Shown: one piece after another, positions 2,612-34,297 of the stretch | How positions within the stretch are numbered: the stretch's first letter is position 1 | How the letters are laid out: the number at the start of each line of letters is the position of its first letter | Origin: Candidatus Woesearchaeota archaeon | Lineage (GTDB): Archaea; Nanobdellota; Nanobdellia; Pacearchaeales; GW2011-AR1 | Direction: 5' to 3' | Assembly: GCA_964544395.1 (NCBI GenBank) | Contig: CAZJAO010000001.1 | Location: 41,185 to 105,184, forward strand | DNA: 64,000 bases | Position numbers and translations under genes: made by a program | The notes under the pieces: model-generated | The model's input: the letters and a program-made list of their open reading frames with translations, nothing else | What the model was told of the DNA's origin: nothing | The model's database searches: none

Positions 2612-2685
2612 AGCCTCAGCTGAGAATCGAACTCAGGACCTCGACATTACCAATGTCGCGCTCTAACCGTCTGAGCTACTGAGGC
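2612..2685 (-). tRNA. tRNA-Thr (anticodon GGU)
   Basis: reverse complement folds as a cloverleaf: acceptor GCCTCAG/CTGAGGC, D-arm GCTC-AGACGGTTA-GAGC, anticodon arm CGACA-TTGGTAA-TGTCG (anticodon GGT), T-arm CTGAG-TTCGATT-CTCAG, discriminator U; TATA-like TTTTATAAAA centred about 27 nt upstream (2707-2717). Confidence 0.85.
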
Positions 2686-2717
2686 ATCAAGTAGCGAATA
2701 AATCGGGTTTTATAAAA

Positions 2718-2768
2718 TTAAGGGAAAGTCAAGCGAAGAAAACCGCAGGTTGTCTCGCTGAGCTACCG
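2718..2768 (-). repeat. copy A of a conserved ~50-nt intergenic motif (family A/B/C), read in the sense of the downstream tRNA-Thr
   Basis: plus strand ttaagggaaagtcaagcgaagaaaaccgcaggttgtctcgctgagctacc; about 85% identical to 7005-7056 over ~50 nt; 3' half shared with 15451-15487; lies immediately upstream of the tRNA-Thr TATA box. Confidence 0.6.
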
Positions 2769-2861
2769 AAGCGCAAACGTTAAAGCTATTTCAGAAAAAG
2801 CAGATTAAAAAGTTTCGTATTATCTATTTTAAAGGAGAGTAAGGAGAAACTTGGTTCTCCT

Positions 2862-3155
2862 CTATCTTTTCTTATTGAATAACTTCAAAAATAAAAATGT
2901 TACAAGAGTGATTAAGAATGCGGCGCTTATGACTCCAAATCCTAGCATGAAGACAAAGAATAAACTTTGATAAACTCCGCTTAGGAAGCTATACAAAACT
3001 AAAGAAACAAGGAATAAAATTACAAAGACAATCAGATTTGTGAAAACAATCTTTATACTTGCCTGATGCTTGCCTCTTGCATATGAAACATTTCTTCTAG
3101 CTCTTGAATGAGTTGTTTTTCTAGAAGTTGTCTTTCTCCCTCTTTTTCTAGCCAT
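2862..3155 (-). CDS. hypothetical membrane protein (basic N-terminus, 2 TM helices)
   Basis: MARKRGRKTTSRK... followed by two hydrophobic helices; ATG start. Confidence 0.45.
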   Translation of the reverse strand: MARKRGRKTTSRKTTHSRARRNVSYARGKHQASIKIVFTNLIVFVILFLVSLVLYSFLSGVYQSLFFVFMLGFGVISAAFLITLVTFLFLKLFNKKR

Positions 3156-3194
3156 TAATATATATAATAGAAAATAGTATTTAAATCTTACGAA

Positions 3195-3374
3195 TTACTC
3201 CGTGTCCGAGAATGATTCTTGCTGCAGCATGTTCATCAAATGAAATTCCCGTCGTTCCTCAATGAAATCCAAATCAGATAATGATTTTTTCTCTTCCGCT
3301 TCTTTTTTTGCCAATTTGTCTGCAACTTTCCACATCTCCTCATAGGTTTCAGGAGGAACAATATTATTTGACAT
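3195..3374 (-). CDS. hypothetical small acidic protein (59 aa; below the ORF-track length cutoff)
   Basis: manual translation of the minus strand gives MSNNIVPPETYEEMWKVADKLAKKEAEEKKSLSDLDFIEERREFHLMNMLQQESFSDTE; no clear SD. Confidence 0.25.
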   Translation of the reverse strand: MSNNIVPPETYEEMWKVADKLAKKEAEEKKSLSDLDFIEERREFHLMNMLQQESFSDTE

Positions 3375-3419
3375 AATTAATTTATTTCTTCGAACTTTTT
3401 ATATTTATATGCCCAATTA

Positions 3420-3623
3420 TCAACTATTTGGAGTCCAGTTTAATTTCACAGCCTGCCCAGTAACTGTAAGAAGATTATTGTATAACGTGCTTATCCAATC
3501 AGAAGAAAGTTGAAAAAATTTCTGCACATTATCCGGCTTGTACATCGCCAGATTGTTATTACTTATAATTAATAAAACCCCAAAAATCAGAACTATAAAA
3601 ATAAACAAAAAAGTTCTTCCCAT
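3420..3623 (-). CDS. hypothetical small membrane protein
   Basis: N-terminal TM helix; C-terminal ...NWTPNS similar to the C-terminus (...NWAAN...) of the upstream paralogous ORF. Confidence 0.35.
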   Translation of the reverse strand: MGRTFLFIFIVLIFGVLLIISNNNLAMYKPDNVQKFFQLSSDWISTLYNNLLTVTGQAVKLNWTPNS

Positions 3624-3624
3624 G

Positions 3625-3945
3625 TTATCCCGAGGAATTAGTGGAGTTTACAGAAGTATTCGCTGCCCAGTTCATGTTAATTGCATTCGTTGTAATTGAT
3701 TTGAAATTTACAAAAACAGAACCCAGCCATGCAAAATAAGTGCCTCCTGCTTGACTTATGCCATTAATAGAAGATAAATCAAGAGGTTTGTTATGAAATA
3801 CAAATGTAAAGCTAAAGTAAAGGAAAAGCAATAAACCAATTAAGAAAATTGCAAGAAGCCTGTGTCTAAACCTCTTTAATTCAAGGAATACCCAGATAGC
3901 AACAATGAGAACACCAATCCCTATTAAGGTTATAGTTAAATCCAT
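3625..3945 (-). CDS. hypothetical membrane protein (tandem paralog of 3420-3623)
   Basis: two TM helices; 1-nt spacing to the next ORF in a different frame; could be a tandem pair or one frameshifted gene. Confidence 0.35.
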   Translation of the reverse strand: MDLTITLIGIGVLIVAIWVFLELKRFRHRLLAIFLIGLLLFLYFSFTFVFHNKPLDLSSINGISQAGGTYFAWLGSVFVNFKSITTNAINMNWAANTSVNSTNSSG

Positions 3946-4020
3946 AGATAAAATAATGAAGGGTAATATAAAAATATTTCCTTAAGATAAATTTTTATAC
4001 AATCCTGATTAAGGATATTC

Positions 4021-5463
4021 ATGGAAAAATTCTATGTTACAACGCCAATTTATTATCCGAATGACATACCGCATATTGGGCATGCTTACACAACCATAGC
4101 AGCAGATATCGTAGCAAGATGGAACAAGCTTCTTGGAAAAAAGGTTTTCTTTCTTACAGGAACAGATGAGCATGGAAAAAAGATAGAAACGATTGCAAAA
4201 GAGAAAAACAAAACGCCGCAGGAATTTGTTGATGAACTGGTTCCAAAATTTAAGGAAGCGTGGAAAAAATTAAACATAGATTATGACTATTTCATTAGAA
4301 CCACAAACCCCGAGCATGAAAAAGTTGTAAAAGAAGTTTTGCAAAAAGTTTACGATAAGAGAGATATTTATTTAGGGGAATATGAAGGGCTTTATTGTAC
4401 TGCCTGCGAAGCTTATTACACTGAAAAAGATTTAATAAATAATTGCTGTCCGATTCACAAAAGACCTGTTGAAAAATTGAAAGAACCAAGTTATTTCTTC
4501 GGATTAAGCAAATACAAAGACCGGCTTCTCGAATTCTATAAAAAAAATCCCAATTTCATTTCTCCAGATTATAGAAGAAAAGAAATTATCAATCGTGTTG
4601 AGGAAGGATTGCAGGATTTGAGCATTTCAAGAACGAGTTTTGATTGGGGAATAAAATTGCCTTTCAACAAACAGCATATAACTTATGTTTGGTTTGATGC
4701 CTTGATAAATTATTATTCTGCAACAAGAGAAAAAGGAAAAAGCAGCTTCTGGCCCGCTGATTTGCATTTGATAGGAAAAGATATTCTTTGGTTCCATGCA
4801 GTTTATTGGCCTGCTATGTTGATGTCCGCAGGAATCAAATTGCCAAAGAAAATTTTCGCCCATGGATGGTGGACATTCAATAAAGAAAAAATCTCCAAAT
4901 CTCGGGGAAAAGTTATCAATGTAAATGAATTAATTGAAATTGCAGGCGTTGATTCTGCAAGATATTTCTTGTTCAGGAATACGGCATTTGGTGAAGATGG
5001 AGATTTCTCGAAAGAAGATTTGATTTCAAGGCATAATAATGAGTTAGCAGATAAATTAGGAAATCTCACGAGAAGAGTTGCAGGATTAGCAGAGAAATAT
5101 GGAATTTCCAAAACAAAAAATTCATTGCTTAAAGATTTGAAATTAAAAGAAATCAAAAGCAAAATGGAAAATCTTGAATTGGACAAAGTCCTAAATTTAA
5201 TTTTTGAATTTATAGACAAATGCAATGAATATGTCCAACAAAAGAAGCCATGGGAAACATTCAGCACAACTGTCTTGTATGAAGTCGCAGATTCAATTAA
5301 AGCAATTGCAATTTTGCTATGGCCATTCATTCCAGAAACTTCTGAAAAGATAGCAAAGCAATTTGGTTTCAAGATTAAAAAAGGAAGCCTAGAAGAAATA
5401 AAGAAACCATTGAAAATTGGAAAAATTCAAAAAGGAGAAATACTCTTCAAAAAGATAGAATAA
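4021..5463 (+). CDS. metG: methionyl-tRNA synthetase catalytic core (class I aaRS)
   Basis: HIGH motif (IPHIGHAYTTIAADI), KMSKS motif (KISKSRG), CxxC zinc knuckle (CTACEAY...CCPIHK); 480 aa. Confidence 0.9.
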   Translation: MEKFYVTTPIYYPNDIPHIGHAYTTIAADIVARWNKLLGKKVFFLTGTDEHGKKIETIAKEKNKTPQEFVDELVPKFKEAWKKLNIDYDYFIRTTNPEHEKVVKEVLQKVYDKRDIYLGEYEGLYCTACEAYYTEKDLINNCCPIHKRPVEKLKEPSYFFGLSKYKDRLLEFYKKNPNFISPDYRRKEIINRVEEGLQDLSISRTSFDWGIKLPFNKQHITYVWFDALINYYSATREKGKSSFWPADLHLIGKDILWFHAVYWPAMLMSAGIKLPKKIFAHGWWTFNKEKISKSRGKVINVNELIEIAGVDSARYFLFRNTAFGEDGDFSKEDLISRHNNELADKLGNLTRRVAGLAEKYGISKTKNSLLKDLKLKEIKSKMENLELDKVLNLIFEFIDKCNEYVQQKKPWETFSTTVLYEVADSIKAIAILLWPFIPETSEKIAKQFGFKIKKGSLEEIKKPLKIGKIQKGEILFKKIE

Positions 5464-5464
5464 A

Positions 5465-5809
5465 ATGACAGAAGGAATAATAGATTTCAGCCACTGGGAA
5501 AAAATAGATTTGCGAGTTGGAAAAATTGTGAAGGTTGAAGATATTGAAGGTGCTGACAAGCTTTACAAATTAACAGTAGATTTGGGAAAAGAAATTGGAA
5601 AGAGAACAGTCTGCGCTGGAATTAAAAGACATTATTCAAAAGAAGATTTGAAGAACAAGAAAATAATTTTATTTGTGAACCTCGCACCAAGAATGTTAAA
5701 GGGAATAGAAAGTCAGGGGATGATTCTTGCAGCAGTTAACAAAGATGAAAGCAAGGTTATTCTCTTAACACCAGAAAAGGATATTGAAGTTGGCAGCAAA
5801 GTGAGATAA
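5465..5809 (+). CDS. tRNA-binding domain protein (Trbp111/EMAP-like; the MetRS C-terminal domain encoded as a separate ORF)
   Basis: IDFSHWEKIDLRVGKIVKVEDIEGADKLYKLTVDLGKE...CAGIK matches the OB-fold tRNA-binding domain usually fused to the MetRS C-terminus; starts 1 nt after the metG stop in the +1 frame (taaaATG). Confidence 0.75.
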   Translation: MTEGIIDFSHWEKIDLRVGKIVKVEDIEGADKLYKLTVDLGKEIGKRTVCAGIKRHYSKEDLKNKKIILFVNLAPRMLKGIESQGMILAAVNKDESKVILLTPEKDIEVGSKVR

Positions 5810-6240
5810 TGGTTTCCAAAAAGCTATTTGATATTACTATTTATGAAACAGATAATTTTGAAGTTAACCAGGATTGGGAAGTCCCAATTCCAGGATTTTT
5901 CATCTTATCCCCTAAAAATAAAATAAAGTCAATAACAGAGTTTACAGATGGCGAATCCCATGAATTAATTGACATTCTTCGCAAAATCCGTAATGCTATG
6001 AGGACCGTTCTTAAAATTAAAGAAGTCTCTATTTTTCAAGAGGAAAAAACCAAATTCAATTTCCATATTTGGATTCTCCCTCAATATGATTGGATGAAAG
6101 AAAATTCATTAAAAGAAATTCTAAAGTATGCACAAAAAAATATGAAATCATCCAAAAACATGAAAGAGGTTAAAGAGGCGGCTGAGAAAGTCAAAGAATA
6201 CTTATCTTCTTCTCAAATTTCTGAAAACCCGGTCCAATAA
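5809..6240 (+). CDS. HIT-like superfamily protein (degenerate histidine triad)
   Basis: ...FHIWILP in the position of the HxHxHxx triad; size and hydrophobic pattern fit a HIT/GalT-like fold; weak call. Confidence 0.3.
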   Translation: MVSKKLFDITIYETDNFEVNQDWEVPIPGFFILSPKNKIKSITEFTDGESHELIDILRKIRNAMRTVLKIKEVSIFQEEKTKFNFHIWILPQYDWMKENSLKEILKYAQKNMKSSKNMKEVKEAAEKVKEYLSSSQISENPVQ

Positions 6241-6975
6241 GCTTTCCCTGTCTTTTCGGGAGTCATAATCTATATTCATTATCTTTGCCGCAATTTCTTT
6301 GTAAGCGCGTGAAGGCTTGCTCTTTGGATAAACATTGACGACTGCATCTTTCATGTTAATTGCTCTTTTTACAACCATATCTTCAGGAATCATTCCAAGA
6401 ATAGGAATTTCAAGCATTTCTTTTACTGTTTCTGGTTGCATTTCAATATCGTCTTTTCTTACTCTCGTAACAATTGTTCCCATAACAGGAATTCTCATTT
6501 GCTCTGCAAGCTTGACAGTCTTTAGTGCATCGGTTATCGCAGCAATCTCAGGATTTGTGACAATAATCAATTCATCAGCCATTTCCATGACAGAAGTTGC
6601 TTCACTTCCAAGTCCGGCTGAACTATCAACAATAACATAATCAGCAATTCTCTTGAAATCATCTTTGAAATCTTTTATTTTGTTCGGCTTTATCTTTCTA
6701 AGTTCTCTTACAGATAAAGAAGAAGGCATAATCTTCATTCCCGATTCATGTTCATAAACAGCCTCATAAGGCTCTGCTTTTCTCAAAAGAACATGATTAA
6801 GGTTTATTGGAACTTCCGGAGAGTTAAGATGTATTCCGATATTTGGAGTAGATAAGTTCCCATCAATAACAAGAACATTTCCGCCAAAATGATTAATTGC
6901 GGCACCGAGATTTATTGCGGTGGTCGTCTTTCCAACTCCCCCCTTACCAGAAGTGATAACAATAAGTCTTTTCAT
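6202..6975 (-). CDS. minD: MinD/ParA-family P-loop ATPase (archaeal MinD-like)
   Basis: deviant Walker A ITSGKGGVGKTTTAINLGAAI at the N-terminus; 257 aa. Confidence 0.85.
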   Translation of the reverse strand: MKRLIVITSGKGGVGKTTTAINLGAAINHFGGNVLVIDGNLSTPNIGIHLNSPEVPINLNHVLLRKAEPYEAVYEHESGMKIMPSSLSVRELRKIKPNKIKDFKDDFKRIADYVIVDSSAGLGSEATSVMEMADELIIVTNPEIAAITDALKTVKLAEQMRIPVMGTIVTRVRKDDIEMQPETVKEMLEIPILGMIPEDMVVKRAINMKDAVVNVYPKSKPSRAYKEIAAKIMNIDYDSRKDRESLLDRVFRNLRRR

Positions 6976-7004
6976 TTTAAATCCATAAGAACAATTTCAC
7001 TTTC

Positions 7005-7056
7005 TTGAGGGAAAGTTAAGCGAAGGAAACCGTAGGTGTCCTCGCGGTTCTACTTA
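7005..7056 (-). repeat. copy B of the conserved intergenic motif, read in the sense of the downstream minD
   Basis: plus strand ttgagggaaagttaagcgaaggaaaccgtaggtgtcctcgcggttctac; overlaps the stop of ORF 7050-7490 and ends ~25 nt upstream of the minD ATG. Confidence 0.6.
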
Positions 7057-7490
7057 CTAAGAAATTGCCTCGTCGTACTTATAAATCTTTCCAGCATGCT
7101 AGCATAAATTTTTAATTTCTCGAGATTAATATCAACCTCTTCCCCACGATAAATTACTTTAAGAGTAACATTCTTTCTGAATTCGCCGATTCTTTCTTTT
7201 CTAAGCTCTTCAAGTTTTCGCAGCATTTCGTAAACATCAATGACTTCAAGAAAATCTTTATCTTTCTTGAAAAGTTTTTTCACTTCTTCCATTTTTGCTA
7301 GAGGGCTTGATGGAATCACAGAGATCTTTTTCTTTGTTTTTGCATGAGCAAGAATTTCTTCAATGCTTGTTTCAATCATTCTTCGCCATCTCAGAAGCAG
7401 ATTAACAATCACATCACAGGTTTTTGTATACTTGAGACTAACATAAAGTAGATGATCTGCCCTAATCTTTTCCTGAATTATATCTTCCAT
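7050..7490 (-). CDS. hypothetical protein
   Basis: 146 aa, ATG start, helical/charged; no recognisable motif. Confidence 0.4.
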   Translation of the reverse strand: MEDIIQEKIRADHLLYVSLKYTKTCDVIVNLLLRWRRMIETSIEEILAHAKTKKKISVIPSSPLAKMEEVKKLFKKDKDFLEVIDVYEMLRKLEELRKERIGEFRKNVTLKVIYRGEEVDINLEKLKIYASMLERFISTTRQFLSK

Positions 7491-7569
7491 TCCTAAAGAG
7501 AACTAAAGTTTAGTAGTAAAATGGTATTTTTATATTTTCCTATTTTATACTATCAGGTAATGGTAAAAG

Positions 7570-7899
7570 TTAGTTTGATAATTTAAAGATGGCTTCTGCC
7601 AAATCGCCGGTCTCAGCCAGTGCTTCCTGCGCTTCTTTTTCGCTGCATCCAGTTTTTTCCATTATGGTCTTTATATCATCATCGGAGAATTTATCGTCGC
7701 TGATTTCCTGGATGTCTCCTGTAATTTGCAAGCTCTCCTGACCTTGCATCTTCATTTTCATAACAGAAGGATTTTCAATTACCAGTTTTCCCCCATCATT
7801 TTTCTCAATTATGACTCTCGAAGCATCTATTTCTTCCTGGGAAAGCCCCATTTGTTTCATTACTGCTTGCATTTTTTTGGGATCAATATTTGGAAACAT
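7570..7899 (-). CDS. nac: nascent polypeptide-associated complex alpha subunit (NAC domain plus C-terminal UBA)
   Basis: MFPNIDPKKMQAVMKQMGLSQEEIDA... N-terminus and a UBA-like C-terminus (CSEKEAQEALAETGDLAEAI); the ORF-track start at 7914 is GTG, so the ATG at 7899 is used. Confidence 0.8.
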   Translation of the reverse strand: MFPNIDPKKMQAVMKQMGLSQEEIDASRVIIEKNDGGKLVIENPSVMKMKMQGQESLQITGDIQEISDDKFSDDDIKTIMEKTGCSEKEAQEALAETGDLAEAIFKLSN

Positions 7900-8244
7900 G
7901 ATAACTGATAACACAAATGGTTAAAAAATCTTTTTATTGCTCTTATTTATGAGCCCAATAAGACTAACAGAACACTCTGATGGTAATCTATATTCTGGAA
8001 TAACAAAAGTAGTAGTAAAAAGAGCATATGGGGGGGGCGAAATCTCCCTTGATACTTTTTCAGTAAAAGATTTAGAAAGAGCAATTTCAGACAAAACAAA
8101 AGAATTCAAGGCAAATGCATATGAACCCCTCAAAGCTAATCTTGTGAATTGGAGCGGGGAATATCACGGTCAATTCCGTTTTTATGAAATTGACAAATCT
8201 GCTTTAACAAGAAAAAAACTAGAACTATATTAGCAATTCTATTA

Positions 8245-8406
8245 TTAAATCTTAACAGTCAATCCAAGTACTATTCTAAAACCAACTAAAAGTATCAAAA
8301 AGAAAATCACGTGCATCGGTTTAAGATTGAACAAGCTGGAATATTCTTCCTTGAATCTTACAAGCCCCCCATAACCAGAAGGTAAATTTATGCTTTCATC
8401 TGCCAT
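8245..8406 (-). CDS. preprotein translocase Sec61-beta subunit (archaeal SecG/Sec-beta), 53 aa
   Basis: manual translation gives MADESINLPSGYGGLVRFKEEYSSLFNLKPMHVIFFLILLVGFRIVLGLTVKI; has the conserved GLxRF/Y motif followed by a single C-terminal TM helix; below the ORF-track size cutoff. Confidence 0.6.
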   Translation of the reverse strand: MADESINLPSGYGGLVRFKEEYSSLFNLKPMHVIFFLILLVGFRIVLGLTVKI

Positions 8407-8483
8407 GATATTACAATCTTAAAAGGGTATAAAAAAGTTTTGTATCCGATAAGTTTTATAATATTGAAATTATAGATAAGTGT

Positions 8484-10841
8484 ATGTTTGAATTCAAGAA
8501 ATCAGAGGAAAAATGGAAGAAGTTCTGGGAAGATGAAAAAATCTACAGGTTTAATCCAGAAACCAAAAAGGAGATTTATTCTATAGATACACCTCCTCCA
8601 ACAGTTTCGGGAAGAATGCACATTGGACATGCCTGTTCCTATTCACAACAGGATTTTATTGCCAGATACAAGAGAATGCGCGGCTATGATATTTTCTATC
8701 CTTTTGGAACAGATGACAATGGATTAGCAACAGAAAGAATGATTGAAAAAATCAAAAATGTCAAAGCCAAAGATATGTCCAGAGAGGAGTTCATAAAATT
8801 GTGCCTTGAATTTCTCAAGAAAGAACTTCCAGAATTCATTCAAGATTGGAAAGATATTGGAATAAGCTGCGATTGGAATCTTCGCTATTCAACAATAAAT
8901 GAACATTCAAGACGAATTTCTCAGTGGAGCTTCTTGGACTTGCACAAAAAAGGAAGAATGTATAGAAAAGACGCTCCTGCAATGTGGTGTCCTGAATGCA
9001 GAACAGGAGTTGCTCAAGTGGAAGTTCGTGATAAAGAAATTGATTCACATTTCAATGACATAATTTTCAAAGTTGATGGAAGAGATTTGATAATTTCAAC
9101 AACACGTCCAGAATTGCTGCCGGCCTGTGTAGCAATTTTTTATAATCCTGAAGATATTAGATTCAAGAAATATCATGGGAAAAAAGCCCGTGTTCCTCTG
9201 TTTGATTTTGAAGTCCCAATTATGGAAGACAAAAGAGCAGACCCAAAAAAAGGAACGGGTGTTGTTATGTGCTGCACTTTCGGAGACCAGACAGATATGG
9301 AATGGCAGAAAGCCTACAATCTTCCGATAAAAATTGCCATTGGGAATGATGGAAGAATGACAGAAGTTGCAGGAAAATACAAGAATCTTCCAATAAAAGA
9401 AGCACGAAAAAAAATAATTGAAGACCTCAAAGAAGCCGGACTTCTTGTTTCTCAAAAACAGATAAAGCATTTTGTTAATGTTCATGAGCGTTGTGGCACT
9501 GAAATTGAATTTGTAAAAAGCAAGCAATGGTTCGTCAAATATCTTGATTTAAAAAAAGATTTGCTGAAATGGGGAAATGAGTTAAAATGGTATCCTAATT
9601 TCATGAAAGTAAGGTATGATAATTGGGTAAATGGATTGCAATGGGATTGGCTCGTTTCAAACCAAAGATATTTCGGAATCCCGATTCCAGTTTGGTATTG
9701 CAAAGAATGTGATGAAATAATAATTGCAAAAGAAGGACAATTGCCTGTAAATCCTCTTTCAGACAAGGCTCCCGTAAAACAATGCCCAAAGTGCGGCTCA
9801 AAAGAGATTATTCCTGAAAAAGATGTTCTCAACACATGGTTTACTTCTTCAATGTCACCGCAATTGTCAACCTGGCTCATGCCCGAGAAAGTTCAGAAAA
9901 GATTATTCCCGATGGACCTTCGTCCCCAAGCTCATGAGATTATCAGTTTCTGGCTTTTCAATACCTTGTTGAAATCAAGATTACACTTCGAAAAGAATCC
10001 TTGGAAGAATGCAATGATTTCGGGATATGTAACCATGAAAGGCGAGAAAATGTCAAAATCAAAAGGGAATGTAATAAATCCTAGGGATATAATGGAAAAA
10101 TATGGGAGTGATGCAATAAGATACTGGGCGGCATCATCAAAATTAGGAGAGGATTTTGATTACAATGAAAAGGATGTCCTTACTGGAAAGAAATTTGTTA
10201 CAAAATTGCTGAATGCATCAAACTTTGTTTTCATGAATCTAAAAGATTACAAACCAAAAGTCACAGAATTGGTTGAAACAGACAGAATATTTTTGAGCAA
10301 GTTAAATGAACTAATCGAAAACTCAACAAAGAATTTCGACAATTATGAATACAATCGTGTAAAATCTGATCTGGATAATTTTTTCTGGAAAATATTCTGT
10401 GATAATTACTTAGAGATTGTCAAAGGCAGAATTTACAATGGGAATGAAAAAGAAAAAGCCTCAGCCTGTTTCACTTTGTATCATATTTTGCTTTCACTAT
10501 CAAAAATGTTTTCTCCGATTACTCCTTTCATAACAGAAGAAGTTTATCAGGAGCATTTCAAAAAGAATGAAAAGTTCAAGAGTATTCACATTTCTTCGTG
10601 GCCTGAAAAATTCAAGATTAAAACATCAAAAGATGATGAAATAAAATTGAATTTAATGTTGGAGCTTATCTATCAAGTGCGACAGGAAAAAACAAAGGCA
10701 AATAAGCCAATGAATGCGCCAATAAAACTTGTTGTTGAAGCTCGCAGATTGAAAATAATAAAGGATATGTTAAGCGATTTGAAGAGCGTTACAAATTCTG
10801 GCGATATCCAAGAAGGCGATTTCGAAGTAGCCTTCAATTAG
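8484..10841 (+). CDS. valS: class I aminoacyl-tRNA synthetase with editing domain, most likely valyl-tRNA synthetase
   Basis: HIGH (PPPTVSGRMHIGHACSY) and KMSKS (KMSKSKGN) motifs; zinc knuckles (CPECRTG, CPKCGSKE); 785 aa fits archaeal ValRS; IleRS/LeuRS not fully excluded without alignment. Confidence 0.75.
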   Translation: MFEFKKSEEKWKKFWEDEKIYRFNPETKKEIYSIDTPPPTVSGRMHIGHACSYSQQDFIARYKRMRGYDIFYPFGTDDNGLATERMIEKIKNVKAKDMSREEFIKLCLEFLKKELPEFIQDWKDIGISCDWNLRYSTINEHSRRISQWSFLDLHKKGRMYRKDAPAMWCPECRTGVAQVEVRDKEIDSHFNDIIFKVDGRDLIISTTRPELLPACVAIFYNPEDIRFKKYHGKKARVPLFDFEVPIMEDKRADPKKGTGVVMCCTFGDQTDMEWQKAYNLPIKIAIGNDGRMTEVAGKYKNLPIKEARKKIIEDLKEAGLLVSQKQIKHFVNVHERCGTEIEFVKSKQWFVKYLDLKKDLLKWGNELKWYPNFMKVRYDNWVNGLQWDWLVSNQRYFGIPIPVWYCKECDEIIIAKEGQLPVNPLSDKAPVKQCPKCGSKEIIPEKDVLNTWFTSSMSPQLSTWLMPEKVQKRLFPMDLRPQAHEIISFWLFNTLLKSRLHFEKNPWKNAMISGYVTMKGEKMSKSKGNVINPRDIMEKYGSDAIRYWAASSKLGEDFDYNEKDVLTGKKFVTKLLNASNFVFMNLKDYKPKVTELVETDRIFLSKLNELIENSTKNFDNYEYNRVKSDLDNFFWKIFCDNYLEIVKGRIYNGNEKEKASACFTLYHILLSLSKMFSPITPFITEEVYQEHFKKNEKFKSIHISSWPEKFKIKTSKDDEIKLNLMLELIYQVRQEKTKANKPMNAPIKLVVEARRLKIIKDMLSDLKSVTNSGDIQEGDFEVAFN

Positions 10842-10870
10842 TTTATAAATATTCCAGACATTTTTTTATA

Positions 10871-11956
10871 ATGATATCCACTAAAACACAGGTCACCGAA
10901 TTGTTAGAAGAACTGGAGAAGTATAAAGGAAAGCATACAGAATTAGTTACAGTTTACATTGCTGCAGGCTATGATGTAGTTTCAGTCCAGAAACAGCTTG
11001 AAGGTGAAAAAGCTACTGCGAAGAACATAAAATCGGCAACTACGAGAAAGAATGTTATTGATGCCTTAGAAAAAATAATTAGAGAATTGAAGAATTACCG
11101 TGGTTCTCCAGAAAATGGATTGGCTCTTTTTTGTGGGAATATATCTCCAGTAGAAGGAGTTCCGGATTTGCAATTCTGGGCGCTTGAGCCTCCCCACCCC
11201 CTTAATACAAGATTATACAGATGTGATAAAGAATTTGTTCTAGACCCGTTGAAGCAAATGATTGAAGTGGAAGAGGTTTTCGGGCTTTTAGTCATGGACA
11301 GAAAAGAAGCAACGATTGGTTTGCTTGAAGGAAAATTAATTCAAGTTTTGCAAAAGATGACTTCTGGAATCCCCAGTCAGATTCGTGCTGGAGGACAAAG
11401 TGCGCAAAGATTCCATAGAATAACGGAGGGTTTAACAAAAGAATTCTACAAAAGAATTGCAGATGAAATGCAGAAAATATTTCTTACAATGCCAAAATTA
11501 AAGGGAATTATTGTCGGAGGTCCTGTTCCGACAAAAGACGAATTTATCAATGGAGAATATTTGCCTGTTCAACTTGGAAAGAAAGTTATCGGAAGAATTG
11601 ATTTAGGTGATGCATCTGAATCAGGATTAAATGAACTTGTTGAAAAATCTGGCGAGTTACTTGCACAACAGGAAATCACAAAAGAAAAAGATTTAGTCAA
11701 AGAATATTTCGGTGCATTAAAAGAAACGCACGGAATGGCAGCGGTAGGCTTCCCAGATACAAAAAAAGCATTGGAATATGGCGCAGTCCAGAAAGTTTTC
11801 ATGTCAACAAAAACAGACAAGAATATACAAAAAGAGCTTATGGAAATGGCAGTTAATTCTGGCGCTGAAGTCTCCATAATTTCAACAGAAACAGTAGAAG
11901 GCCAGCAATTCTTTAATATCGGCGGAGTTGGAGCAATCCTAAGGTTTAAAATCTAA
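10871..11956 (+). CDS. prf1: peptide chain release factor aRF1
   Basis: NIKS codon-recognition motif (TAKNIKSATTRK) and GGQ peptidyl-hydrolase motif (AGGQSAQRFHRI); 361 aa. Confidence 0.9.
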   Translation: MISTKTQVTELLEELEKYKGKHTELVTVYIAAGYDVVSVQKQLEGEKATAKNIKSATTRKNVIDALEKIIRELKNYRGSPENGLALFCGNISPVEGVPDLQFWALEPPHPLNTRLYRCDKEFVLDPLKQMIEVEEVFGLLVMDRKEATIGLLEGKLIQVLQKMTSGIPSQIRAGGQSAQRFHRITEGLTKEFYKRIADEMQKIFLTMPKLKGIIVGGPVPTKDEFINGEYLPVQLGKKVIGRIDLGDASESGLNELVEKSGELLAQQEITKEKDLVKEYFGALKETHGMAAVGFPDTKKALEYGAVQKVFMSTKTDKNIQKELMEMAVNSGAEVSIISTETVEGQQFFNIGGVGAILRFKI

Positions 11957-11973
11957 AATATCTCTTCTTAAAC

Positions 11974-12504
11974 ATGAGCATAACAAGCAATACAGCTTCA
12001 GAAATCGACGAGGCAAAAGAAAAGGAATATGTGAAAAGGATTGAAGCAATCTTCTTCATTTCAGGAAGATTTTTGTCCATGCAGGAATTAATTTCCCTTT
12101 CAGACCTAAACCCAATTATCATAAAGGAGCTTATTGACAAACTTAAAGAGAAATACAACAAAGATGATTCGGCTATAGAGATAACCGAGAGAAATGGATT
12201 GTGGAAGATGGATATAAGAAAAGAATTTGGAAATATTGCAAATAGATTAGCTTCAGGCAATTCTGAATTCTCAAAGGCCGAACGTGAAACTCTTGCAATC
12301 ATAGCTTATAAGCAGCCAATAAAACAATCTGTGATAATAAAAATAAGGGGGAACAAGGCTTACGATCATGTAAAAAAATTCATTGAACTGAATCTCGTTA
12401 AAAAAAAGAAGATAGGACATACGAACGAACTTTCTTTGTCAGATGAATTTTATGATTACTTCAATGTCCAGGATTCTAAAGACTTCCTGAGAAAGGAGGA
12501 CTAA
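11974..12504 (+). CDS. scpB: ScpB-like segregation/condensation protein B (winged helix)
   Basis: IEAIFFISGRFLSMQELISL matches the ScpB N-terminal wHTH signature (IEAlLFasgePlsl.eL); 176 aa. Confidence 0.6.
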   Translation: MSITSNTASEIDEAKEKEYVKRIEAIFFISGRFLSMQELISLSDLNPIIIKELIDKLKEKYNKDDSAIEITERNGLWKMDIRKEFGNIANRLASGNSEFSKAERETLAIIAYKQPIKQSVIIKIRGNKAYDHVKKFIELNLVKKKKIGHTNELSLSDEFYDYFNVQDSKDFLRKED

Positions 12505-13743
12505 ATGGTTCAATTTCTGACAGGAGTTTACCTCTTCTATATCTTTTGCTCCCTGTATCTCCTTTTTCTTTATTTGTTATTATACTTGCAAAACAGAAAA
12601 GAATTCTTTGCCTATCCCCCTCCTTCCAAAGAATATTTTCTGGATATGATAATTCCATGTTATAATGCGGAAAAGACAATTGAAAATACTATTAATGCAA
12701 TATTGAAATCCGATTACAAGGGATTGAAAAAAGTAATAGTCGTGGATGATTGCAGCACAGACAATTCTTACAAAATCGTGAAGGAACTTGCAAAGAAAAA
12801 TAATAAAATACTTTTGGTGCAGACCCCTAAAAATACTGGAAAAGCGAGTGGTGCAAAAGACTATGGAGTAAAATTTTCCAAATCAGAATTTATTGGATTT
12901 ACAGATGCAGATTCATTTCCGGGAGAAACATCAATCTCAAAGATGATTGGATTCTTCAATGATGAAAAAGTTGGAGCTGTAACTTCTTCGGTACTGGTTT
13001 TGAATGATGATAATATTCTTGGAAAATTGCAGGCAATAGAATACAGAATTATCGTCTTCACAAGAAAGCTTCTTGGTTTTGTAGATGCTATTTATGTAAC
13101 TCCGGGACCTCTTGCAATATATAGAAAGCAAATTTTCAATGAGATAGGGGGCTTTGATGAAAAAAATCTCACAGAGGATATTGAAATCACATGGAATCTT
13201 GCATCAAAGGGATATATGGTAAGAATGAGTCCTCTTGCTCAAGTCTATACTGAAGCTCCGACAAATCTCAAGTCCTGGCTCAAGCAAAGAATAAGATGGA
13301 ATGTTGGAGGACTTCAAACAATTGGAAAATACAAAAAGTTCCTTTTCAAGAAAGGCATGCTTGGAAACTTCATACTCCCCTTCTTCCTTGTCTCATGGGC
13401 TATCGGACTTTCAGGGCTCTTCATCATGGCTTACAGATTAATTCAGGGGCTGATAGTCAATTTATTATCTACAAGTTACTCTTTGCAGGCGCAGACGGCG
13501 GTATTAAATCTACAGAACATAAATCTTGTTCCGAATATTCTGTTTTTCTTCGGAGTAATCGTTTTAATATTTGGTTTCATATTTACCCTAATTGCTTTGA
13601 AAAAGACAAGATATAATGGAAAATCCAAAAGAGTAAGTCTCCTTAATCTGCTCGAGTATACTTTCCTGTATGTATTAATCTATCCGATAATTTTAATAAT
13701 TTCAATTTATAAGGTTATAACAAGAAAGGAGAATAAATGGTAA
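12505..13743 (+). CDS. membrane glycosyltransferase, GT2 family (processive-type, QxxRW)
   Basis: DDCSTDNS (DxD-type), TDADS, and the QRIRW motif followed by multiple C-terminal TM helices; SD AGGAGG upstream; start overlaps the scpB stop (TAAATG). Confidence 0.8.
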   Translation: MVQFLTGVYLFYIFCSLYLLFLYLLLYLQNRKEFFAYPPPSKEYFLDMIIPCYNAEKTIENTINAILKSDYKGLKKVIVVDDCSTDNSYKIVKELAKKNNKILLVQTPKNTGKASGAKDYGVKFSKSEFIGFTDADSFPGETSISKMIGFFNDEKVGAVTSSVLVLNDDNILGKLQAIEYRIIVFTRKLLGFVDAIYVTPGPLAIYRKQIFNEIGGFDEKNLTEDIEITWNLASKGYMVRMSPLAQVYTEAPTNLKSWLKQRIRWNVGGLQTIGKYKKFLFKKGMLGNFILPFFLVSWAIGLSGLFIMAYRLIQGLIVNLLSTSYSLQAQTAVLNLQNINLVPNILFFFGVIVLIFGFIFTLIALKKTRYNGKSKRVSLLNLLEYTFLYVLIYPIILIISIYKVITRKENKW

Positions 13744-14396
13744 TGTTCGGAAATAAAAAGAATGTTTTCTGGGAAGCGTTTTTAATAGCATGCGTGATTT
13801 TTATTCTAGGACTGTTAATAGGGGTTTTCGTCGAATCTGACCGATTGCAGCAGATTAATGATTATTATTCGCAGGCACAGGTCTCCCTGATGGATTCAAT
13901 GGCGATGAGCAACTCTTTGAGCAATTCCACAAACTGCGCAATCATGATAAATTCAAGCATTAACTTTGCAGACAGCATTTACAATCAAGCTTTGTTGTTG
14001 GAGAAATATGAAGATTCAGGAAAAATCAGCAATAGTATGATAATTGCCCATTCTGAATATGATTTATTGAGAACGGTTTTATGGCAGAATCTCATTACAA
14101 TGAAATCAAAATGTTCCAATCAATTTAATTTCATTATCTATCTTTACCAGTATAATCCGTCAAATTTAAATCAAAAAGCAATGCAGAGTGTGTGGTCCAA
14201 TATCCTAGCTGATATGAAGCAGAAAGAAGGCAATAATGTAATTCTCGTTCCTATTTCCGTCAGCAGCAATTTGTCTTCTCTGAATTTATTGACAAGCAAT
14301 TTCAACATTACAAGTTATCCCGCTGTTGTGATAAATGACAAAACAACCCTCTATAAATTGCAATCTGTCAACGATATTAAGAAGTATTTAGCCTAA
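13737..14396 (+). CDS. hypothetical membrane-anchored protein
   Basis: N-terminal TM helix (AFLIACVIFILGLLIGVFV), remainder Ser/Asn-rich; overlaps the GT2 gene end by 7 nt (operon-like). Confidence 0.4.
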   Translation: MVMFGNKKNVFWEAFLIACVIFILGLLIGVFVESDRLQQINDYYSQAQVSLMDSMAMSNSLSNSTNCAIMINSSINFADSIYNQALLLEKYEDSGKISNSMIIAHSEYDLLRTVLWQNLITMKSKCSNQFNFIIYLYQYNPSNLNQKAMQSVWSNILADMKQKEGNNVILVPISVSSNLSSLNLLTSNFNITSYPAVVINDKTTLYKLQSVNDIKKYLA

Positions 14397-14462
14397 ATCC
14401 GCCGAATTTCAATTATTTTTCAATATAAGAATCTTTAAAAAATAGTTATGAGGTAAATATGT

Positions 14463-15149
14463 ATGGAAAAATGTTTTAGGTGTGGTGCTTCTTCAGAAAA
14501 TACAATTATTTATGATGCAATTTCAAGTGAAGGATTAGTAAGAATCTGTGGTAATTGCAACATTAAAGAAAATCTTCCTGTTCTAAAAAAAGCTGGTGAT
14601 GTGCCTCCCGAAAAGAGGCAGACGGTTTATGAAAGAATGACTCGGATGTCGGGATTTAACCCTAAAGAGAGAGAAATAAGGGAAAGAGAAGAAGAAAGAA
14701 AAAAACAAAATGAAGATATGAAGCAGGTCATGGATAGAAATTTCAGAGAAGAGATCATGACTACAAACATGAAAAAAGAGACCGCAGGGGAATCAAATCT
14801 TGTCAGAAATTTCCACTGGGAAATGATGAAGGCAAGAAGAGCAAAGCATATGAGCCAGAAGCAATTAGCAGAAGCGCTGGGCGAATCTGAATTGGCAATA
14901 AGAATGGCTGAAAGAGGAATGCTTCCTAGGGAAAGAGAGAGACTTGTAAGAAAGATAGAGAATTATCTGCATATAAGGATTTCAAATGTGCCTACTTCAG
15001 AAATAACTATTGATGCCCAGTCACAGGAAGTGCCTGATGAAGTTCCAATTGAAGAAATCAAAAAGAAATTTTCAATAAGAGAACTGCTTGGTTTGAAAAA
15101 AAAGATAAAAGAAAAAGAAGAATCGGAACAGGCAGAGCAATCAGAGTAA
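14463..15149 (+). CDS. MBF1-like transcription cofactor (N-terminal zinc ribbon plus HTH_XRE), with a long charged linker/tail
   Basis: CFRCG...CGNC zinc ribbon at the N-terminus; HTH motif MKARRAKHMSQKQLAEALGESELAIRMAERGML typical of XRE/MBF1; longer (228 aa) than canonical aMBF1. Confidence 0.5.
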   Translation: MEKCFRCGASSENTIIYDAISSEGLVRICGNCNIKENLPVLKKAGDVPPEKRQTVYERMTRMSGFNPKEREIREREEERKKQNEDMKQVMDRNFREEIMTTNMKKETAGESNLVRNFHWEMMKARRAKHMSQKQLAEALGESELAIRMAERGMLPRERERLVRKIENYLHIRISNVPTSEITIDAQSQEVPDEVPIEEIKKKFSIRELLGLKKKIKEKEESEQAEQSE

Positions 15150-15187
15150 TCCATTAAATTTATAAATGAATTTTCTAATTCTTTACT

Positions 15188-15451
15188 ATGGAAATTAATG
15201 TTCTTAAAAGTTCAAAGGATGAAATAGAATTAGAGCTTGATAGCCTGACAATCGCTGAAATTCTAAGAGTTTATTTGAACAGGGATTCATCTGTTACATT
15301 CGCTGCATGGAAAAGAGAACATCCTACAAAAAAGCCTTCTTTGATAATAAAAACAAAAGGCAAGGCTGCAAAAAAGGCAGTTGAAGATGCTGTTTCTGAG
15401 ATTGAAAAAGATTTGGAAAAATTAGGAACAGATTTCAAGAAATTAAAGTAG
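15188..15451 (+). CDS. rpoL: DNA-directed RNA polymerase subunit L (Rpo11)
   Basis: EIELELDSLTIAEILRVYLNRDSSVTFAAWKREHP matches the RpoL/Rpb11 signature (ElEgEdHTLgNlLr...v.fAaYk.eHP); 87 aa. Confidence 0.75.
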   Translation: MEINVLKSSKDEIELELDSLTIAEILRVYLNRDSSVTFAAWKREHPTKKPSLIIKTKGKAAKKAVEDAVSEIEKDLEKLGTDFKKLK

Positions 15452-15487
15452 AGAGTCAAAGTTTCCTTCGCTTAATCTTCCCTTAAG
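15451..15487 (+). repeat. copy C (3' half only) of the conserved intergenic motif, in the sense of rpoL/radB
   Basis: gagagtcaaagtttccttcgcttaatcttcccttaag; shares ~25 nt (gtttccttcgcttaa.tt.ccct.aag) with copies A and B in transcript sense; begins at the rpoL stop and ends ~40 nt upstream of the radB ATG. Confidence 0.55.
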
Positions 15488-15528
15488 ATTACAATAATCC
15501 TTATTAATTCTTTAAGCTATTTTCTGAA

Positions 15529-33928: not shown

Positions 33929-34297
33929 ATGGGAGATATATTCGATAATACAATACTTTGCAACAAGTGCAATACTGAAATGAACAAGGTTAGCATTGCA
34001 AAAAATGGATTTCTATTAAGAGCAGTTGTTTGCCCAAAATGCAATGACAAGATAATTCATCCTGCTGATGAGGCAGAGTATGAGAAATTTGTAAATCTAA
34101 AAAATAAAGAATTTCACGTAAAGATGAGACTTGTTGGAAACAGTTATGCGGTCTCAATACCAAAAGAAATTGTTTCTTTCATGGAATCGCAAAAAAACAT
34201 GATGAATGAAATGGTAAGATTATGCTTTGAAGACATGGGAAGAGTTTCCCTAAATTTTGAAGAGCTTGCAAGGAGAAATATAAAACATGGCAACTAA
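33929..34297 (+). CDS. zinc-ribbon plus SpoVT/AbrB-like swapped-hairpin domain protein
   Basis: CNKCN...CPKCN ribbon; VGNSYAVSIPKEIV matches the AbrB/MazE-type motif; 3' end overlaps the cdc48 start by 11 nt. Confidence 0.5.
   Translation: MGDIFDNTILCNKCNTEMNKVSIAKNGFLLRAVVCPKCNDKIIHPADEAEYEKFVNLKNKEFHVKMRLVGNSYAVSIPKEIVSFMESQKNMMNEMVRLCFEDMGRVSLNFEELARRNIKHGN

Follow-up and report, generated by a model that had tools for sequence, protein, structure and literature searches.

The 64,000-nucleotide stretch analysed here (the window) comes from a Candidatus Woesearchaeota archaeon (contig CAZJAO010000001.1, positions 41,185 to 105,184) and contains three short, related intergenic sequences, copies A, B and C, which precede the genes for tRNA-Thr, MinD and RadB, respectively. 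An earlier interpretation made from the letters alone (the sequence-only reading) had proposed that they are a position- and orientation-dependent transcription-factor (TF) binding site or upstream activating sequence (UAS) of these genes. Comparison with close relatives shows that the three copies are lineage-specific insertions of a family-wide element, as opposed to conserved sites that regulate minD, radB or tRNA-Thr. Copy A lies within the tRNA-Thr gene, between positions 14 and 15; its insertion duplicated the first 14 nucleotides (nt) of the gene, so that an intact tRNA-Thr remains downstream, and brought a TATA box to where the tRNA-Thr promoter should be. Copies B and C stand directly after stop codons, at sites where the spacers of relatives measure 23–44 nt, and copy C has lost half of its hairpin. 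On balance, it is probable that these motifs are copies of a short, non-coding insertion element, present in low copy number and scattered through Nanoarchaeia-type DPANN genomes, that is, a mobile mini-element carrying expression signals.

The repeat itself is real, as the sequence-only reading had held. The core pattern CTTCGCTTRAYTTYCCCTYAA, searched for through the 64 kilobases (kb) with up to three mismatches allowed, is matched only at 2718–2738 (minus strand), 7005–7025 (minus strand) and 15466–15486 (plus strand), with 0.01 matches expected by chance, and none of 100 shuffled windows yielded three. A profile built from 109 family members recovered the same three sites with nhmmer and no fourth copy in the 64 kb. 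The copies are dispersed, being spaced 4.3 and 8.4 kb apart. The likeness claimed for copies A and B holds in that both share a 41-nt unit, and measured identity is 77% across the full spans first outlined and 83% (34 of 41 positions) over the element proper, consisting of hairpin and tail. Copy C indeed keeps the 3′ part only, having 28 nt of the unit in common with B at 89% identity in an ungapped comparison, or 79% in a global alignment offset by one base. The nested stem that had been proposed equals the predicted minimum-free-energy hairpin, and compensatory changes in it occur within the family. The distances to stop and start codons had also been given correctly: copy A ends 32 nt ahead of tRNA-Thr and does adjoin the TATA box TTTTATAAAA; copy B begins 4 nt past the stop codon of an open reading frame (ORF) of 146 amino acids (aa) and ends 29 nt 5′ of the minD ATG; and copy C begins at the stop codon of rpoL, the gene of RNA polymerase subunit L (Rpo11), and ends about 41 nt 5′ of the radB ATG. 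The parts of the three copies and of the duplicated gene are the following.

2733–2758, minus strand: hairpin of copy A, GCGAGACAACC-TGC-GGTTTTCTTCGC, assigned by sequence and fold to subfamily 2, whose 5′-arm variant goes with T at position 20 in 29 of 29 copies.
2718–2732, minus strand: pyrimidine-rich tail of copy A, TTGACTTTCCCTTAA.
2686–2717, minus strand: right-hand module of copy A, the TATA box TTTTATAAAA and 22 nt (CCCGATTTATTCGCTACTTGAT), ending at tRNA-Thr +1 and part of the inserted element.
2759–2772, minus strand: upstream copy of the 14-nt target duplication, equal to tRNA-Thr positions 1–14 and now reading GCTTCGGTAGCTCA, with two substitutions (alignment A3).
2612–2685, minus strand: intact tRNA-Thr(GGU), called by ARAGORN and scoring 69.4 bits with the Rfam tRNA model; its first 14 nt (2672–2685) are the downstream duplicate.
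7005–7045, minus strand: copy B, made up of a hairpin (7020–7045) and a tail (7005–7019), with a profile score of 49.7 bits and the corresponding fold.
6976–7004, minus strand: right-hand module of copy B, GAAAGTGAAATTGTTCTTATGGATTTAAA, which resembles 'block 2' of the class I alignment and fills the spacer up to the minD ATG.
15452–15492, plus strand: copy C, truncated, with the 5′ hairpin arm lost and the tail GTTTCCTTCGCTTAATCTTCCCT intact, matching profile positions 16–38 only and lying between the rpoL stop (TAG) and a conserved AATAATCCTTATTAATTC box upstream of radB.

The evidence for insertion comes from six relatives with the same gene order, found through MinD: L193 (99% identity), L189 (95%), L195 (94%), L190 (89%), L191 (81%) and L192 (77%). 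Over its contig each of them keeps the order of the window (NAC, the 146-aa ORF and MinD, then methionyl-tRNA synthetase, small ORFs and tRNA-Thr), and the contigs of L189, L190 and L192 extend to ScpB, rpoL and radB. Nucleotide identity to the window is 80–86% where the DNA can be aligned (L189, L190 and L193–L195); L191 and L192 are unalignable at the DNA level and are placed by MinD identity and gene order. With nhmmer (E ≤ 1), no copy was found in the syntenic 20-kb blocks of L189–L192, nor in L193 and L195, against three in the window. Since all six lack a full copy, minD, radB and tRNA-Thr do not need the motif, and the expectation that its position relative to promoters would be conserved in relatives does not hold at the orthologous sites.

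At site A, the window has 87 extra nt inside tRNA-Thr when aligned with L189, L190 and L195 (alignment A3). They consist of a 14-nt copy of tRNA positions 1–14 and a 73-nt element, which comprises the 41 nt of hairpin and tail, TTTTATAAAA and a further 22 nt, and across the four aligned sequences the 50 nt upstream hardly differ. The right-hand module of copy A is thus missing from the three relatives; because the alignment places the TATA box inside the inserted 73 nt, this box arrived with the element, and it now lies 22 nt upstream of the intact tRNA-Thr. The same TTTAAAC-CGnTTT module is also found 3′ of the core in L123, L065, L087, L118 and L114, and exact 14–15-nt duplications analogous to that of copy A occur in L123 and L049. 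At site B, the spacer between the 146-aa ORF and minD measures 74 nt in the window and 23–34 nt, of unrelated sequence, in L189–L193 and L195. In L194, a seventh relative, the spacer is 122 nt long and includes what is left of a hairpin (CCTACGGGTTCC), besides an unrelated tandem repeat formed by two copies of a unit containing GGAAGTTGAGACGAAC. Among congeners the spacer therefore takes lengths of 23, 24, 26, 30, 34, 74 and 122 nt, and it is a hotspot of turnover. At site C, the rpoL–radB spacer is 77 nt long in the window and 43–44 nt in L189 and L190, where the stop codon (TAA or TGA) is followed directly by the conserved AATAATCCTTATTAATTC box. Two more distant genomes differ at this site: in L130, whose RadB is 69% identical, a full copy begins at the stop codon (TA|G), and in L100, with a RadB identity of 67%, the site is empty.

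Two further observations concern the same region. The HIT-family gene by minD (window 5809–6240) is missing in L189 and L190, which carry a DUF2334 gene near tRNA-Thr, and gene content therefore varies within an otherwise strict synteny. In addition, contigs L003, L006, L009 and L014, obtained from other samples with three assemblers, break inside copy B (7005–7020): two start at CTTAACTTTCCC and two end in ...CCCTCAA or ...CCCTCA, with a 16-nt overlap, which suggests several co-existing haplotypes or recombinant junctions. Copies B and C lie in inverted orientation, and the junctions that an inversion between them would produce were seen in no contig.

The family to which these copies belong was delimited by two scans. 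A 21-mer pattern searched in one genome per GTDB species gave 23 loci, ten of which, with full hairpin and tail, are in nine metagenome-assembled genomes (MAGs) of Pace-, Woese- or Nanoarchaeota; the remaining ones are chance matches within coding regions of unrelated organisms, mostly bacteria. The metagenome scan, whose pattern was anchored on the tail and is thus biased towards copies with an intact tail, gave at least 119 loci in at least 113 distinct contexts, and the family counts in this text are among the matches listed there. These come mostly from groundwater and sediment, and the family members all belong to Woese-, Pace- or Nanoarchaeota-type DPANN archaea. The count that the sequence-only reading had called for thus gives a family present in many DPANN archaea, with only three copies in the 64-kb window and mostly one strict match per contig elsewhere, that is, a low copy number. 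The window itself has archaeal Pfam matches (NAC, RNA polymerase subunit L, RadB, MinD), MAGs of 'Candidatus Nanoarchaeia' and Nanoarchaeota supply its nearest named MinD homologues, and its contig recurs in fen and rhizosphere metagenomes; its source is thus a DPANN archaeon. The family is uncatalogued: neither Rfam nor the IMG/VR contigs nor the searchable literature contain it. No covariance model of Rfam 15 falls on the motif at the gathering threshold or at E ≤ 10, the only matches being to tRNA, rRNA and RNase P; the family pattern has no match in IMG/VR viral contigs; searches of the literature by keyword and by sequence returned no description of the element; and a recent survey of complete Nanobdellota genomes does not mention it.

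The core of the element reads GCGAGRMMACC, a 3–6-nt loop and GGTTTYCTTCGC, followed by the pyrimidine-rich tail TTAAYYTTCCCT. It forms an imperfect hairpin of 11 base pairs (bp), whose conserved asymmetry consists of a bulge and one mismatch. Two subfamilies can be distinguished in which the coupling between the arms is perfect, GGAC going with C in 59 copies and GACA going with T in 29; a G-C pair is thus exchanged for A-T, which is a compensatory change. The named structure pairs 98% of cells on two alignments, none of 500 shuffles reaches the observed covariation score in either of them, and pairing is destroyed when partner columns are slid as a control, so that the covariation suggested as a check of the nested stem was found. 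To the right of the core, three kinds of module occur, which bring the element to about 45–95 bp overall: (i) a TATA box (TTTAAAC/TTATAAAA) followed by CGnTTT and 20–35 nt, mostly with subfamily 2; (ii) 'block 2', a 3-bp mini-hairpin NNU-CAN-GNN followed by UGAUUA, with two covarying pairs; and (iii) a further 8-bp hairpin with four covarying pairs, found before the genes for SMC, DNA ligase, L11, L37ae and phenylalanyl-tRNA synthetase (PheRS).

In 121 contexts, the element has no orientation preference with respect to either neighbouring gene: within 200 nt, right-hand neighbours share its strand about 37 times and lie on the opposite one about 32 times, the corresponding figures for left-hand neighbours being about 34 and 43. 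The statement that the motif always lies in the sense of the flanking genes is thus true of the three window copies and not of the family, and the orientation pattern was seen because the sample was small. The distance from the element to the first AT-rich box is also scattered, with no fixed TATA distance. What is precise is the hairpin end, a sharp boundary that is fused to gene ends. CAT or CATT stands directly before it in 36 of 109 copies, which places an opposite-strand ATG 0–1 nt off, with AGGTG 7–8 nt upstream of it, and the TAG stop of a preceding gene is completed by the first G of the hairpin in 15 of 109. The genes whose ATG adjoins the element include those for SMC, DNA ligase, Ku, elongation factor 2 (EF-2), thermosome, PheRS, L10e, L11, L24e, L37ae and L39e. 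The commonest precise arrangement has the element on the opposite strand, its reverse complement ending exactly where an ATG or a tRNA begins. Transcripts of either polarity certainly exist somewhere, as 3′ untranslated regions (UTRs) behind stop codons and as 5′ leaders ahead of ATGs, and antisense pairing between copies within one cell is therefore possible.

The association with tRNA genes is frequent, since a tRNA lies within 200 nt in 39 of 121 loci, and two tRNAs end exactly at the hairpin base, where others start. In L077, L170 and L179 the reverse complement is the leader of tRNA-Ala(UGC), which in L077 and L179 is flanked by the 16S and 23S rRNA genes; L077 also encodes RNase P RNA. 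The element also occurs, in either orientation, within tRNA introns, namely of tRNA-Gln in L065 and of tRNA-Tyr in L053, L062 and L108. In L065, L053 and L062 the introns that contain it are longer than the element, and L065 also has long introns without it. Identity with a bulge-helix-bulge (BHB) tRNA intron does not apply, as the window copies are outside tRNA exons and the element itself is not the intron. Clustering of 959 ORFs neighbouring the loci gave housekeeping orthologues only.

Some tRNA-related observations were made alongside. In these DPANN lineages the introns at the canonical tRNA position are unusually long (L065 4–143, 982–1127 and 3821–3953; L053, L062, L108); they measure 62–75 nt generally and about 130–135 nt in tRNA-Tyr, and are missed by ARAGORN with default settings. 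In L097, L151, L153, L168 and L180, the left flank of the motif holds, on the opposite strand and beside tRNA-His, a conserved stretch of some 65 nt that resembles an RNA (GCACAGCUAAAG ... GUGAUGA-like box ... UUUAGCUGUC, closed by a terminal stem); it begins right after the reverse-complement motif and is not in Rfam. Near the motif in L087 and L118 there are sequences resembling tRNA 3′ halves (T-arm and acceptor 3′ strand) with no 5′ half detected nearby, and these may be split or highly unusual tRNA genes.

Signs of insertion are not restricted to the window. Direct repeats of 13–24 nt, taken from tRNA or gene ends, flank the core and its module in at least 13 loci. In eight of these, the repeat is exact, 13–21 nt long and within 3 nt of the hairpin, for which the chance expectation is negligible, and in seven of the eight the exact repeats delimit an element of 65–93 nt, the L155 case being nested. 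At tRNA 5′ ends the repeat spans from about −3/+1 to position 12–14, and at tRNA 3′ ends it runs from position 52–58 to a few nt past the end; because the repeats reach the end of the tRNA or gene, an intact gene copy is always preserved. A further sign of mobility comes from a homologous tRNA-Tyr intron, which holds the element at two different positions in L053 and L062. In L082 (11475–11586), class I copies are arranged head to tail with a 66-nt period up to the end of the stored locus. A separate observation was made at the 3′ end of tRNA-Gln in L114 (about 2350–2700) and L155, where 3–4 serial copies of AGCCCYRCCAGGATT(+ATGCAT) are separated by different inserts of 65–110 nt, one of them being the motif element, and this looks like a reused T-loop hotspot.

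A number of points weigh against a mobile element. No terminal inverted repeats are present in the eight duplication-delimited copies, in which the first 25 nt, compared with the reverse complement of the last 25, score no better than shuffled sequences. There is no transposase, integrase or reverse transcriptase in the window, and among the 959 ORFs near loci no recurrent cluster of transposases, integrases, reverse transcriptases or Cas1-like proteins was found. The length of the duplication varies (13–24 nt), copies B and C have no target duplication, and copy number is low. Lineages with no more than 57–60% identity between their SMC proteins have the same element immediately 5′ of the SMC gene, and conservation as extreme as this looks like long-term purifying selection on a functional element and not like selfish spread. 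All relatives described as empty are metagenome assemblies. Finally, the sites of C and A are also occupied in L130 and L065, respectively. The element may therefore have been present ancestrally and lost repeatedly in the nearer relatives; gain, or repeated site-specific gain, is more parsimonious given six empty nearer relatives.

Other explanations have to be weighed against insertion, and the two alternatives already mentioned in the sequence-only reading, a 3′-UTR element and a small structured RNA, come nearer to the evidence than a TF site does, except that they do not capture the insertion behaviour. The rival with most in its favour, which we nevertheless consider rather unlikely, proposes that the functional molecule is the RNA of the reverse complement, 5′-AGGGAAGGUUAAGCGAAGGAAACCGUAGGUGUCCUCGC-3′, a cis-acting leader or operator of mRNAs and tRNA precursors. 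Its hairpin would sequester AGGUG and end at the AUG or at tRNA +1, and it would be bound by a protein or processed, co-regulating information-processing genes, with the window copies being misplaced or antisense. Such a role would agree with the ATG of a long ORF that lies 0–2 nt after the reverse-complement motif in about 35 of 118 contexts, with the location directly 5′ of at least 11 tRNAs starting exactly at the hairpin base (including the tRNA-Ala between 16S and 23S), with the additional covarying hairpin upstream in the SMC and ligase class, and with the place 5′ of SMC being kept at the SMC identities given above. Single changes in the hairpin 5′ arm point the same way, G→A occurring 11 times and C→T never, so that G·U pairs are kept only on the reverse-complement strand, in a strand test that is one-sided because the 3′ arm was fixed by the search pattern. 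However, on that strand no ORF or RNA gene follows any of the three window copies, about 15 family copies lie in the other orientation right after stop codons, the U·G pair of the block-2 mini-hairpin is on the opposite strand (the 'sense' strand of the sequence-only reading) in 32 of 33 copies, the strict core is found in only nine DPANN genomes of the GTDB species set, and the window copies are missing from close relatives. A TF binding site acting as DNA on the adjacent promoter, whether as UAS or operator, would account for both orientations, and many copies do have a TATA-like box 0–25 nt from the tail end, copy A adjoining one. Nevertheless, the conserved bulge and mismatch, together with the compensatory changes, indicate a single-stranded fold and not a dimeric site on double-stranded DNA; neither TATA distance nor gene orientation is fixed; some copies are inside tRNA introns; and the orthologous promoters of six relatives lack the motif. 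On sequence evidence, a TF site is thus highly improbable. For the window, both the leader RNA and the TF site are disfavoured because the sites are empty in relatives.

It could also be argued that the motif is a recombination or attachment (att) site, or an att-proximal remnant, of small integrative elements that target tRNAs, the direct repeats being the att cores. The duplications always include a tRNA or gene terminus, the tRNA-Gln 3′ end in L114 and L155 carries its 3–4 serial copies (15–21 nt) with different small inserts between them, and the 16-nt overlap at the breaks in copy B is what alternative junctions sharing a core would give. Against this, no integrase was found near any locus, the repeats are 65–95 bp apart, copies B and C have no repeats, and the motif is without a match in IMG/VR, where its 16-mer has chance matches only; an att site is very unlikely, being disfavoured by the lack of integrases and by the small size. 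The least probable of these proposals is that the motif and its complement form the leader/trailer 'zipper' of split, trans-spliced tRNAs as in Nanoarchaeum equitans, a 5′ fragment having the motif as trailer and a 3′ fragment its complement as leader. The motif does follow tRNA 5′ fragments in window copy A, L049 and L123, and tRNA 3′ fragments do follow the reverse-complement motif in L070, L087, L114, L118 and L164, but these fragments duplicate the ends of an adjacent intact tRNA, and the 5′ pieces, ending at 12–14, and the 3′ pieces, starting at 52–58, do not sum to a tRNA. For the window, this idea is contradicted by the empty site in relatives, which marks copy A as an insertion.

Several other candidates were tried and rejected. 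A kink-turn or L7Ae site was discarded on inspection of the hairpin, since the G·A pairs are missing on the non-bulged strand. A likeness to the 23S 5′ and 3′ ends and to 16S helix 45 of E. coli would make the motif an rRNA fragment or mimic; the real DPANN 23S ends on L077 are unmatched, and the 16S 3′ region gives only a weak match, AAGGTAGGTTAAG. A 5S rRNA opposite copy A would overlap the tRNA gene. For the core of a virus or plasmid att site, the 16-mer CTTAACTTTCCCTCAA gave only chance matches in IMG/VR coding regions, and the family pattern none. The reverse complement as a complete core promoter of leaderless transcripts is attractive for its TTAA at −30 to −27 from the ATG, but neither the compensatory hairpin changes nor the covarying hairpin upstream in the SMC and ligase class agree with this idea, which is a minor possibility. 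As for a C/D box sRNA, the C box (RUGAUGA) is on neither strand of the core, block 2 has only a CUGA-like tetramer, and the Rfam models of small nucleolar RNAs stay below threshold. A regular array with unique spacers, of the CRISPR type, was not seen among the loci, the sole tandem case (L082) having no spacers.

The model of a mobile mini-element carrying expression signals proposes that copies are tolerated at gene boundaries through signals on both strands. One strand would provide the hairpin and T-rich tail and then a promoter; the other would provide a purine-rich leader with a Shine–Dalgarno-like AGGTG that, in other genomes, ends at start codons or tRNA 5′ ends. Some copies appear to have been co-opted as 5′ leaders of core genes, such as SMC, and these carried signals and their co-option would be the reason why the element looks like a regulatory motif. 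Within the window, only copy A is likely to be relevant to expression, and copies B and C, carried along in a 3′ UTR or an intercistronic spacer, are probably close to neutral. The long and variable duplications bounded by transcript ends, the sharp boundary on the hairpin side and the truncated copies make the element a poor fit to a classical miniature inverted-repeat transposable element (MITE), and these three features leave room for RNA-mediated or template-switching copying. The hairpin-side boundary coincides with RNase P sites in the tRNA-leader copies. Going further, and only tentatively, the family could be an undescribed class of gene-end-targeting 'expression cassette' elements, in which a 41-nt core and a promoter or leader module are copied into the first or last 12–24 nt of tRNA or protein genes, duplicating that end, perhaps via an RNA intermediate, and are domesticated as leaders. 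The ends of such an intermediate might be set by transcription start and RNase P cleavage, which would explain the boundary, the duplications and the truncated copies alike, and hosts with tiny genomes would have domesticated copies many times over, each as the 5′ leader of a core gene (SMC, DNA ligase, ribosomal proteins, tRNAs).

Other prokaryotes harbour interspersed elements that are small, non-autonomous and equipped with expression signals, such as the Correia elements of Neisseria, the bacterial repetitive extragenic palindromes (REP) and interspersed mosaic elements (BIME), the archaeal MITEs and the 'mobile promoters'. The present element is like them in being short, non-coding, hairpin-forming and located at gene boundaries, in donating promoters, in its presence or absence between close relatives and in having target duplications in some copies. 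It differs from them in that it has no terminal inverted repeats, its duplications measure 13–24 nt, its copy number is low, it is near-invariant across divergent hosts, its left end is fused to start or stop codons or tRNA ends, and no partner transposase was found. Archaeal BHB tRNA introns transpose in Thermoproteales, and here too the same sequence is found in introns of different tRNAs (tRNA-Gln in L065, tRNA-Tyr in L053, L062 and L108, and others); however, the element is a passenger in longer introns, in either orientation and absent from other long introns of the same contig, and most of its copies are outside tRNAs. Integration of the casposon or Cas1 type at tRNA gene ends produces target duplications of 14–15 bp (PMC5137440, PMC4046053). 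Insertion at tRNA ends, with a duplication of about 14–15 nt or longer that regenerates an intact tRNA, is common to both, whereas the element is about 70–95 bp and not several kb long, lacks terminal inverted repeats and adjacent casposase or PolB-type genes, has duplications of up to 24 nt, and is also inserted at tRNA 5′ ends and protein-gene ends. In Nanoarchaeum equitans, conserved tRNA promoters and the leader and trailer sequences of split tRNAs have been described (Randau et al. 2005, as cited in bioRxiv 10.64898/2026.05.13.725050). The two cases share a DPANN host, a conserved sequence at a fixed distance from tRNA 5′ ends and tRNA fragments beside it; here, by contrast, the fragments duplicate intact neighbouring tRNAs, the element also fronts protein genes, and RNase P RNA is found on one element-bearing contig.

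Elsewhere in the window, two further repeats were observed. Positions 24839–25523 hold 4–5 tandem repeats of 117 nt (64–79% identical) within a minus-strand ORF of 779 aa, probably a repeat-domain surface protein. A 776-aa ORF (34287–36617) has an internal duplication with a spacing of about 822 nt (35040–35123/35862–35945; 35436–35492/36261–36317), which fits a two-domain AAA+ (Cdc48-like) ATPase.

The genomes of DPANN archaea are compact and very small, and to our knowledge almost nothing is known of their non-coding DNA, promoters and mobile elements. In this setting, a 41-nt sequence that is near-invariant between hosts at about 60% SMC identity, yet comes and goes between congeners, is a mobile element under unusual constraint, or else a regulatory module that is mobile. 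For annotation, the consequence is that the motif should not be recorded as a promoter element of minD, radB or tRNA-Thr. The family could explain some oddities of tRNA genes in these organisms, such as duplicated ends, long introns and 'missing' tRNAs, and is a possible marker of strain-level rearrangement in metagenomes. More generally, it offers a handle on how expression signals are distributed and renewed in reduced genomes.

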